Source: a virus (lineage: Duplodnaviria > Heunggongvirae > Uroviricota > Caudoviricetes). Taken from it: a DNA stretch of 64,000 nt. Both the position numbers and the translations under genes were made by a program. Location of the stretch: positions 27,299 through 91,298 of IMG/VR virus record IMGVR_UViG_2913167280_000003, one strand, 5' to 3'. Under the pieces are notes generated by a model. That model was not told the origin of the DNA. It ran no database searches and saw nothing but the letters and a program-made list of their open reading frames with translations. Within the stretch, counting starts at the first letter, position 1; each line of letters begins with the position of its first letter. Positions 6,387 through 8,400 of the stretch are shown here, piece after piece.

Positions 6387-6953
6387 TCACTTCAACATGG
6401 ATGAGAAAAGAACAATTCCCGGGATAATTGCCCTTGTTGCGCTCATTTTCTCTTCCAGATCCAGCTTTCGCTGATACAGCGTGTTCTCGTCGGATAAATT
6501 GCTGGCATCGAGTTTCCCCGCGATAGATATTCTTCGCAGGCGATCAGTGTTAGGTATAGCGATTAGCACTTCCAGATAGTCAGAAAGTAACCCAATGATT
6601 TCAGGTGGCACTTCCCCATTATCCAGATCCATATCACGTAAATTAGCCAGATATGACACATTCAGCGGGTATACCGCTCGATGAGTATCTTCAAGCTCGA
6701 TATTCCCATCGTAAACATCGGAGTAGACAAGATCGCCGGTGTGATCTGTAACCGATACGAGCGCAAGAAAATCAGCTGGGCAAGCAAGTGATTTAAAGGT
6801 CTGATCAGTGAAGCGTATCCGCTTGATGTGCCCAGCCCTATCCTGGTAGGTTCCCAATGCTTTTCTTAGCAGGGATTCCAGTAAGGCAGGTTCATCCGCA
6901 ATCAAAGGTGTGAAGCGGGATTTGACGTCTTCGAGTAATTGTCGTGGTGTCAT
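6387..6953 (-). CDS. first gene of the minus-strand structural operon (188 aa)
   Basis: Start [12 protein letters not shown] at 6953 directly downstream of leader inverted repeat; its first 12 codons are duplicated at 8346. Confidence 0.55.
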
Positions 6954-7004
6954 TGAAACCTCGTAGAATCTGGTTTGTTAACCGATTCTACGAGTTGTCA
7001 TTTG
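6917..7004. repeat. ~88-bp direct repeat copy 1 (leader plus 5' end of the 188-aa gene), contains 11-bp inverted repeat CTCGTAGAATC/GATTCTACGAG
   Basis: Near-identical to 8312-8400 (about 5 mismatches) by direct comparison. Confidence 0.85.
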
Positions 7005-7106
7005 TCCATTGAGTGGGAATATTGCCGTCTGGGAGTAATATGGTATCATTAAGTTAGAGTAGGTAGTGTAGATGGAATGAGGAGTATCATATGGTTATCA
7101 CACAAT

Positions 7107-7136
7107 CAGGTTGCTTTGAGTCAGGTTGTTTTGAGT
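7107..7136. repeat. tandem 15-bp direct repeat (CAGGTTGCTTTGAGT x2, one mismatch)
   Basis: Seen directly; sits just upstream of a terminator hairpin in the divergent intergenic region. Confidence 0.7.
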
Positions 7137-7147
7137 AAAACAATAAA

Positions 7148-7172
7148 ACGCCCTTTAATGGGCGTATTTTTT
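7148..7172 (+). terminator. intrinsic terminator-like hairpin (ACGCCC-TTTAAT-GGGCGT followed by T-run)
   Basis: 6-bp GC-rich stem followed by ATTTTTT; 10 bp upstream of the 7183 ATG. Confidence 0.55.
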
Positions 7173-7182
7173 AGGATTTAAA

Positions 7183-8076
7183 ATGCATTCTTTACAGAAA
7201 TACATAAAACATAAATATACTCACTTAACTTTTTTTCTCTCATTACTTTTTTTCATGATATTTGAATCGCGAGAAGATCTTATCAAGAAAATATTATCTT
7301 TTTCTCTCAATGAAGTTTTACCATTCTTAATGTTTGCGTTCTTCTCCGTATTTATCAGCATAACGATAAAGGAAAAGATAGCAAAGAAATACCCAGAAAC
7401 AAACGATGGGATTACCATTATAGCTTTAATCTTTGGTGTAACACTATATAGTGTGTTTATCTTATATTATTTATATGGTGATGTATACCAATCCACAATT
7501 GCTTTACTTATAAGTTCTGTGCTACTTGGTTCTGGGTGGTGGGTTCAGGCTACTGTGAGTAAAGTAGCCGCAAGAAAATCACACACCTTAAATACACTAA
7601 TGAATCAAAGAAACAGTGAATTATTTCACAAGAAAGTTTCATCGGTAGCGAATACGTTCGGGCTTAGAAAAACCATAAATGAAATTATTGCCAAACAAAG
7701 ACTTGTCCCAAATGATAAAGATTTAAAAAATAAAAAGGTCCATGATGAATACATATCAGCAGGTAATGATATGTTCTTCGTTCTTAATTATTATGAATTT
7801 ATCTGTTCAGGAATAATAAATGGGGACTTTGATGAAGATTCAATGAGAGAATGTCTTGGACAAATTGTTCCAGGTCTCGAAGTTAGAGCATTTCATTTTA
7901 TAAGAATTGCAAGAGAAATTTCAGGGAGTAGCTGCTTCTGTAATTTTGTCGCTGTTTCAGACAAATGGTCTACTAATGGAGGCTCTCTTATTCTCAGACA
8001 CGAGAAAGGAGAACCTGTGATTAATAACCTGACCCATTGCTTTGAAGAAACAGACTGTTTTAACATAACTTCTTAA
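7183..8076 (+). CDS. AT-rich accessory membrane protein, about 4 predicted TM helices plus ~170-aa C-terminal domain (297 aa)
   Basis: Hydrophobic segments LTFFLSLLFFMIF, LPFLMFAFFSVFISITI, ITIIALIFGVTLYSVFILYYLYG, IALLISSVLLGSGWW; AT-rich composition unlike flanking backbone; hairpins on both sides. Confidence 0.6.
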   Translation: MHSLQKYIKHKYTHLTFFLSLLFFMIFESREDLIKKILSFSLNEVLPFLMFAFFSVFISITIKEKIAKKYPETNDGITIIALIFGVTLYSVFILYYLYGDVYQSTIALLISSVLLGSGWWVQATVSKVAARKSHTLNTLMNQRNSELFHKKVSSVANTFGLRKTINEIIAKQRLVPNDKDLKNKKVHDEYISAGNDMFFVLNYYEFICSGIINGDFDEDSMRECLGQIVPGLEVRAFHFIRIAREISGSSCFCNFVAVSDKWSTNGGSLILRHEKGEPVINNLTHCFEETDCFNITS

Positions 8077-8082
8077 TATTTT

Positions 8083-8109
8083 GTAACCCATAATCGCTTT
8101 ATGGGTTAC
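8083..8109 (+). terminator. hairpin downstream of the 297-aa gene (GTAACCCA...TGGGTTAC)
   Basis: 8-bp perfect stem with 11-nt loop; no strong T-run, so terminator function uncertain. Confidence 0.35.
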
Positions 8110-8130
8110 GTTAAATTTGCAATAAAAAAA

Positions 8131-8311
8131 TCAATCGCCGGGCTTTAAGCATCCATCGTTTTTGGCTTGTTGATATAACTTACTTAGCCCAGAAAGAGGG
8201 AATGTGGCAATTTTTTCATTATCAACATAAGCATCAATCACATTAGCATTTGAATCTGCTGCATCCTGCCAAAAGGCATACCACCAAGAATCTCCAACCA
8301 TTGACCCAAGA
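8131..8311 (-). pseudogene. remnant of a paralog of the 154-aa gene (C-terminal ~57 codons only)
   Basis: Minus-strand translation ...DSWWYAFWQDAADSNANVIDAYVDNEKIATFPLSGLSKLYQQAKNDGCLKPGD* aligns with C-terminus of ORF 9673-10137 (...REWYSFWKSASATKEKNMDVYIG...SSIYKEAKNDGCLK); no intact N-terminus. Confidence 0.45.
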
Positions 8312-8400
8312 GGGATTTGACGTCTTCGAGTAATTGTCGTTGTGTCATTGACACCTCGTAGAATCTGGTGTGTTAACCGATTCTACGAGTTATCATTTGT
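8312..8400. repeat. ~88-bp direct repeat copy 2, including duplicated start codon and 12 codons ([12 protein letters not shown]) of the 188-aa gene
   Basis: Near-identical to 6917-7004; the duplicated start at 8346 is followed by a stop after about 36 codons. Confidence 0.85.

Follow-up and report, generated by a model that had tools for sequence, protein, structure and literature searches.

The DNA stretch considered here (the window, 64,000 nucleotides (nt) long) covers positions 27,299 to 91,298 of the IMG/VR viral record IMGVR_UViG_2913167280_000003, and its sequence identifies the element as a P1-like phage-plasmid: DNA identity to P1 and its relatives is 92–97% across the region, the annotated pmgC genes of P1 and P7 included. 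Our subject is a variable locus in which a segment of about 90 bp, holding the late promoter LPsit and the first codons of pmgC, occurs twice, as copy R adjoining pmgC and as a second copy, R'. The locus lies between pmgC/LPsit and c4-icd-ant (the immI region), as located by open reading frames (ORFs), Rfam matches to the C4 RNA and colinearity with P1 and P7, and P1 has simC, simB, and simA there. An initial annotation of this DNA, made from the letters alone, had likewise set the locus between virion genes and immI at the sim position.

From left to right the locus comprises R, a module with a DUF4760 gene and the 3' remnant of a second gene (gene X; 158 amino acids (aa) when intact), R', and a distal cargo set with an SH3-domain protein gene and a further gene X paralogue (Table 1). 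GC content is 35.7% across the locus and 34.0% in the bracketed module (7006–8311, 1306 bp), against 48.0% for sit–pmgC. Locus content varies among relatives and both flanks are conserved; homology with all relatives restarts at 10222 or 10302, right of the variable cargo. At least five cargo classes occur here: sim, the P7 type, the SH3 type, DUF4760 with gene X and a 116-aa gene, and a 158-aa plus 215-aa pair.

Table 1. Features of the variable locus and its flanks, in window coordinates
Feature	Position	Strand	Evidence or remark
sit	1395–4787	-	ORF list, P1 colinearity
pmgB	4869–5750	-	ORF list, P1 colinearity
tub	5765–6376	-	ORF list, P1 colinearity
pmgC, first gene of the late operon pmgC-tub-pmgB-sit (backbone)	6387–6953	-	ORF list; match to P1/P7 pmgC
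Repeat copy R	6917–7005	-	Repeat detection; boxes by colinearity with P1 annotation; motif search
LPsit in R	-22 box AAATGACAA 6995–7003; -10 box TAGAAT 6985–6990	-	P1 colinearity
Spacer common to the P1 simC–LPsit intergenic region	7006–7182	.	P1 homology reaches 7185
Bidirectional terminator-like hairpin	7148–7165	both	Terminator scan
DUF4760 gene, 297 aa, AT-rich accessory cargo	7183–8076	+	Pfam PF15956, E 8.7e-14; phrog_21275
Terminator-like hairpin after the DUF4760 gene	8082–8110	+	Terminator scan
Gene X 3' remnant (secreted, YfjT-like; 158 aa when intact)	8131–8311	-	pMS6198C match; phrog_3429, E 5e-25
Repeat copy R'	8312–8400	-	Repeat detection; BLAST; motif search
LPsit in R'	-22 box AAATGATAA 8390–8398; -10 box TAGAAT 8380–8385	-	P1 colinearity
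SH3 gene (394-aa product, bacterial SH3 domain at the C-terminus)	8502–9686	-	Pfam SH3_3, E 1.2e-5, just under gathering score
Second gene X paralogue	9673–10137	-	92% identical to residues 34–168 of the L006 168-aa protein
immI start region, right-hand conserved flank	10222–10583	+	Homology to relatives; Rfam RF03163, RF01695
C4 targets a1/b1	10377–10429	+	Rfam
C4 antisense RNA	10498–10583	+	Rfam
icd and ant	10848–11885		Right of the C4 RNA

A late-promoter segment in two copies

R and R' are identical at 85/89 positions; extended to 93 nt (6913–7005 and 8308–8400), they agree at 88/93 and differ at five. The repeat search returned the 93-nt form (95% identity, copies 1395 bp apart), and BLAST aligned 89 nt at 95.5% identity (E ~1e-37) with no third copy in the window. 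Homology ends abruptly at both edges. Each copy consists of LPsit, the leader, and nt 1–37 of pmgC (12 codons plus 1 nt), with 52 nt, LPsit among them, lying upstream of the pmgC start codon (6953, minus strand). The Shine-Dalgarno sequence GAGG (6959–6962 in R) is also kept in R'. The initial annotation had described an ~88-bp duplication at 8312–8400 made of the leader and first 12 codons of the operon, bracketing a 1.3-kb AT-rich module and fused to a gene remnant, and each of these points was borne out. The remnant is an ORF (8131–8301, minus strand) of the last 56 codons of gene X, 96% identical to residues 103–158 of the 158-aa protein of pMS6198C; breakpoint mapping places the end of homology to intact gene X at 8311. 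The truncated pmgC start in R' opens a 36-codon out-of-frame fusion ORF (8238–8348), which is also called in the Logan contig L024.

For the promoter, a late-promoter consensus was rebuilt from the GenBank annotation NC_005856, using six late promoters in the first half of P1. In these, a -22 box of AAGTGACTT, AAGTTACTT, AAGTGATTT, or AAATGACTA is separated by 4 nt from a -10 box of the form TANNNT. The corresponding sequence is AAATGACAA-ctcg-TAGAAT in R and AAATGATAA-ctcg-TAGAAT in R', the sole difference being a C>T change that is also seen in P1 LPlyz. At position 8 of the box, both window copies have A and all six P1 boxes examined have T. The motif matches five times in the window (0.31 expected), with R and R' among the matches. 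R' has the sequence make-up of a P1 Lpa-dependent late promoter, namely a 9-bp -22 box like AAGTGACTT, the 4-nt spacer, and TANNNT, and is plausibly a second late promoter. Both copies share this architecture with LPsit, LPs, LPlyz, and the other P1 late promoters, but R', unlike those, precedes no intact gene: downstream of it lie just the 36-codon fusion ORF and antisense cargo. We predict that R' would work as an Lpa-dependent late promoter directed antisense through the DUF4760 gene. If active, transcription from it would cover the fusion ORF and then the antisense strand of DUF4760, up to the terminator at 7165–7148. The other three motif matches (12879–12897, 20337–20355, and 37724–37742, all minus strand) are probably further late promoters of this element.

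R also contains an 11-bp perfect inverted repeat (6960–6970 and 6984–6994; CTCGTAGAATC-N13-GATTCTACGAG), which spans 6960–6994 in R and 8355–8389 in R'. One arm covers the LPsit -10 box and the other overlaps the pmgC Shine-Dalgarno sequence. RNA read through from upstream is predicted to form a hairpin (-22.4 kcal/mol, z -5.1), and RNA starting after the -10 box gives no fold (-3.2 kcal/mol, z 0.4). On this folding model, the hairpin would allow pmgC translation to be restricted to late-promoter transcripts. An informal by-eye comparison of the inverted repeat with lox, cix, and dif gave nothing convincing.

Distribution of the copies and an intermediate arrangement

The 93-nt segment occurs in 509 PLSDB plasmids (519 places) and in 512 RefSeq Escherichia coli records (528 places), and is single-copy in ~98% of relatives. 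Of the 56 PLSDB plasmids with DUF4760/gene X cargo, about 52 carry the segment once and retain gene X intact. This common arrangement, exemplified by pMS6198C (L004), runs pmgC, LPsit, DUF4760 (rightward), intact gene X and the 116-aa gene (both leftward), immI, with one R. The SH3 cargo is commonly arranged as in NZ_CP148988 (L006), whose layout is that of the window less exactly 1395 bp; as a single-repeat site, L006 represents the ordinary single-copy state of SH3-type cargo and is 89.5% identical to the window there.

The junction found in the window, which joins gene X codon 102 to pmgC nt 37, was detected in 4/509 PLSDB plasmids carrying R and in three RefSeq records. Among the RefSeq E. 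coli records, R copies without an adjoining pmgC number 11, and ten of these fall into two types: the three of the window type and seven of a second type, represented by L013. The RefSeq E. coli census yielded no further junction types. Exact-pattern scans gave no match in IMG/VR viral contigs for either junction type, and none in JGI metagenome contigs for the window type.

The initial annotation had proposed a repeat-flanked insertion hotspot, with cargo between the copies expected to vary among P1-like elements. Gene content between the copies is the same in every carrier of the window-type junction, and the variation lies beyond R'. The same junction stands beside P7-type cargo (DUF5384 plus a lipoprotein) in L007, L009, and OY757122, beside the 158-aa plus 215-aa pair in L008 and L010, and beside the SH3 set in the window; homology between junction carriers ends at 8401–8409, the upstream edge of R'. 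In L007–L010, the module is identical at all variable sites, and their R' copies differ among themselves. The variable sim-equivalent locus was upheld, with P1, P7, and several plasmid classes differing there, but with ~98% of relatives single-copy, the repeats neither define the hotspot nor bracket a site of insertion.

The seven L013-type plasmids in RefSeq come mainly from O111:H8 and bovine isolates and read R, DUF4760, intact gene X, 104 nt from the end of the 116-aa gene, R', and the 158-aa plus 215-aa cargo. Their R' starts at the same pmgC base as the R' of the window. L013 is colinear with L004 over 1–3974 (98.8% identity), ending exactly at the junction, and with L008 on either side of a 424-bp gap (97.8–98.3% identity). 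A different joint stacks the same two cargos as in the window in L005 (CP057476.1, 3250–3900), with no R': gene X there has lost its first ~9 codons and carries a frameshift, and the sequence immediately downstream of the SH3 gene runs straight into codon 10 of gene X. Such stacking has thus come about more than once and does not require R'.

Origin of the second copy

We interpret R' as a recombination scar left by the end-to-end joining of two accessory-gene sets at the sim-position locus of a P1-like element, and put the probability of this reading at about 0.8. We infer the order of events and the role of R' as a crossover site as follows. Two P1-like genomes with different cargo would have met in one cell, one with pmgC-LPsit-DUF4760-gene X-116-aa gene-immI (the last two genes leftward) and the other with pmgC-LPsit-other cargo-immI. 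A single illegitimate, unequal join would then have linked the 116-aa gene of the first to pmgC nt 37 of the second, leaving both cargo sets in tandem with a second LPsit and a pmgC stub between them. A 424-bp deletion would have taken out what was left of the 116-aa gene along with two thirds of gene X from its 5' end, giving the window junction. R' is homologous to the LPsit region that all other P1-like genomes carry and could provide one arm, on the left, with immI providing the right one, when distal cargo is exchanged by homologous recombination; such exchange would place one junction beside three different cargo sets. Recombination between R and R' would be expected to delete the 1395-bp module. 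The initial annotation had suggested that the module was gained by recombination that duplicated the junction. The duplication does mark a recombination junction, but the intermediate points to tandem joining of cargo and not to insertion between duplicated targets: because two complete cargo sets are joined in tandem in L013, the duplication is a by-product.

Several observations weigh against this history. Both junction types end R' at the same base, with no useful microhomology; if the L013 type gave rise to the window type, the deletion must have stopped on its right side at precisely the base of the older joint, which we treat as coincidence. The window module differs from that of the other junction carriers at ~35 sites (2.7%) despite the shared junction, so further homologous exchange inside the module is needed. 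No close single-copy relative of the window SH3 cargo was found; the best, at 94.5% identity, is too distant for placing the crossover point in the window R'. No natural R × R' deletion derivative encoding the exact window SH3 protein is on record.

The origin may be as above and the duplication nevertheless kept by selection for a useful second late promoter, either for antisense silencing of DUF4760 during the element's own lytic growth or for extra late transcription of the tail operon. Every R' examined (window, L007–L010, and L013) retains the boxes, their spacing, and the hairpin, and R' is directed antisense across the entire DUF4760 gene, toward the terminator at 7165–7148 and LPsit. 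We nonetheless consider selection unlikely. The scar is confined to ~2% of elements, most DUF4760 carriers do not have R', and L005 stacks the same cargos with no R' at all; the rarity and the absence from most carriers argue against a necessary role for R'. Three substitutions are private to the window R', one falling within the -22 box, a pattern that drift would produce, and the sample is too small for a test of constraint.

Two related proposals give the segment itself an active part. In the first, which we find improbable, LPsit, with its embedded 11-bp inverted repeat, would be a preferred docking and break site for promoter-bracketed stacking of cargo, with R' then silencing DUF4760 late by antisense. 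If so, the same-base breakpoint would reflect a site-specific break, and late shut-off of DUF4760 would keep the element from blocking its own lytic cycle. In the second, the two junction types would have arisen independently, with pmgC nt 37 a preferred break or join point such as a nuclease or pause site; that R' starts at the same base beside different partners, and with no microhomology, is what such a point would produce. We regard independent origins as very improbable, given that L013 and L008 are colinear with the same distal cargo and linked by a simple deletion, and that these two types alone make up 10/11 of the R copies without adjoining pmgC in the 512 RefSeq records. Nor did that census point to any broader set of joints at pmgC nt 37.

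We also reject a mobile cassette, in which the DUF4760 module would insert site-specifically into LPsit and be excisable, R and R' being att sites or a long target duplication. Direct repeats do flank the module, L006 equals the window minus one repeat and the module, R carries an inverted repeat with a 13-nt spacer of a shape known from recombinase sites, and R' ends at the same base in two junction types. However, the module holds DUF4760 and a gene remnant only, with no recombinase or transposase; the repeat search found no terminal inverted repeats; one repeat end lies inside truncated genes; in nearly all PLSDB carriers of the cargo, R is single and gene X is intact; the L013 intermediate shows a two-step illegitimate origin; and the RefSeq E. 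coli census adds no junction beyond the two types. Finally, an assembly artefact (a mis-join or duplicated contig end), for which the general risk that repeats pose to assemblers is the sole argument and which the initial annotation had named as a concern, is refuted by the five mismatches between the copies, by Logan short-read contigs that span R' with unique flanks on both sides (L016 and L017) or span both copies (L024), by NCBI assemblies of several samples that show an identical arrangement (window 2131–14301 has a 100% match in contig RHJM01000047.1), and by the same junction in complete plasmids from other laboratories.

The scar read in this way is an ordinary product of phage mosaic evolution and calls for no new insertion mechanism. 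Temperate phages are mosaics whose novel joints arise by illegitimate recombination and spread by homologous recombination in conserved flanks, and their added genes have been termed morons (Hendrix and colleagues). The DUF4760 module resembles a moron, as an AT-rich accessory gene with its own terminator between conserved operons; unlike moron joints, the window joint has left a promoter and the 5' part of an essential gene in two copies, and a surviving intermediate orders the steps. For P2 and P4, it is well documented that cargo is swapped at fixed hotspots between conserved flanks (PMC9122126, PMC13586616). The window locus shares with these the fixed position, conserved flanks, and highly variable accessory cargo, but differs in that PADLOC recognised no defence system in the window, and in that the element is a plasmid prophage and not integrated. 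Like P1 simC/simB/simA and the P7 upf50.0/upf50.5 locus, it has low GC and swapped content at the same position between conserved flanks; unlike in the P1 region, the window proteins gave no BLASTP match to SimA, SimB, or SimC of P1. PMC9603915 lists the simABC region as variable region 4, one of eight low-GC variable regions in P1-like phage-plasmids; the text, so far as it was read, does not describe tandem cargo with a duplicated promoter and stub, and the window departs from the sim region depicted there in stacking two cargo sets with a duplicated promoter and gene stub between them. The variable locus being already published, the current view of P1 biology is unchanged, and what is new is minor, namely a tandem cargo joint recognisable by the late promoter and gene stub that it duplicated, and its surviving intermediate. 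Together they provide a worked example of how hotspot cargo may build up by illegitimate tandem joining, trimming, and homologous shuffling, in which a duplicated promoter of ~90 bp would suffice to link one module to several cargo sets.

Cargo genes and neighbouring features

The DUF4760 gene has a GC content of 29–36%, and its product is predicted to contain four transmembrane helices and an all-helical domain (AlphaFold2 mean predicted local distance difference test 81). It had no match in PADLOC, NCBIfam, or PDB sequences, its fold had no Foldseek match at E <0.001 in PDB or BFVD, and a literature search returned nothing informative on function. The hairpin at 7148–7165, which scores in both orientations, leaves just 18 nt between its end and the DUF4760 start codon. 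Either DUF4760 is transcribed through this terminator from a promoter near 7022–7049, or its true start is Met25 (7255), a start favoured by some annotations and by the PHROG profile. Homologues with 42–46% identity occupy two other accessory positions. In Erwinia (L018/L019), one lies in a P4-like satellite, after the primase and before the att end and an integrase remnant, and the primase–att interval is a described minor P4 hotspot for defence. In Pseudomonas (L020/L021), the homologue sits at a prophage end, between lysis genes (lysozyme/spanin) and the integrase. DUF4760 recurs, then, at accessory or defence positions of unrelated mobile elements, which as a sign of a defence system is suggestive only. 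From this genomic context, we tentatively propose, at somewhat below even odds, that it is an accessory exclusion or defence gene for phage–phage competition, and homologues in three unrelated types of mobile element flag it as a candidate for this role.

Beyond R', the 394-aa SH3 protein is 80% identical to its counterpart in L006, whose gene abuts LPsit; in single-copy relatives generally, the SH3 gene directly adjoins LPsit. The neighbouring gene X paralogue also has a precomputed weak match to Pfam YfjT (PF27224). In place of its signal-peptide end stand ~28 codons from the N-terminus of an IS605-type TnpB (Pfam HTH_OrfB_IS605, E 0.0016, at residues 1–28), and because of this replacement the gene is probably inactive. 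The TnpB-like fragment itself (10053–10137) is a 28-codon remnant and lies outside the module. Bases 10053–10225 have a match in a Morganella phage, and 41 nt are shared with HK97 and HK106. A SimA-domain gene that relatives carry here is missing from window 9673–10221, and this interval resembles what an insertion sequence would leave behind after deleting part of the cargo.

The SimA-domain proteins of relatives are long and secreted (163–215 aa; L006:4075–4566 and L008:4146–4793, both minus strand), and P1 SimA corresponds to only their first ~50 residues. They share a 47-residue stretch with the C-terminal part of Sit (49% identity, pairwise E 6e-9), with the motif NAPGMR...VQGTLEERARG (residues 927–969 and 997–1010 of the window Sit). 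Judged from this similarity, a SimA-domain protein could be a periplasmic decoy of injected Sit and so provide a mechanism of superinfection exclusion.

Further right, a full-length sok antitoxin RNA (14032–14206, plus strand; Rfam 87 bits, gathering score 59) suggests that a hok/sok-type addiction module lies downstream of ant/kilA/repL; we know of no such module in P1 itself. L014 (GCA_004745395.1, PDII01000037.1) is the same element, with 31 single-base gaps and 0 mismatches relative to the window. The gaps split its DUF4760 gene into two called ORFs and are probably uncorrected long-read indel errors, not real frameshifts.

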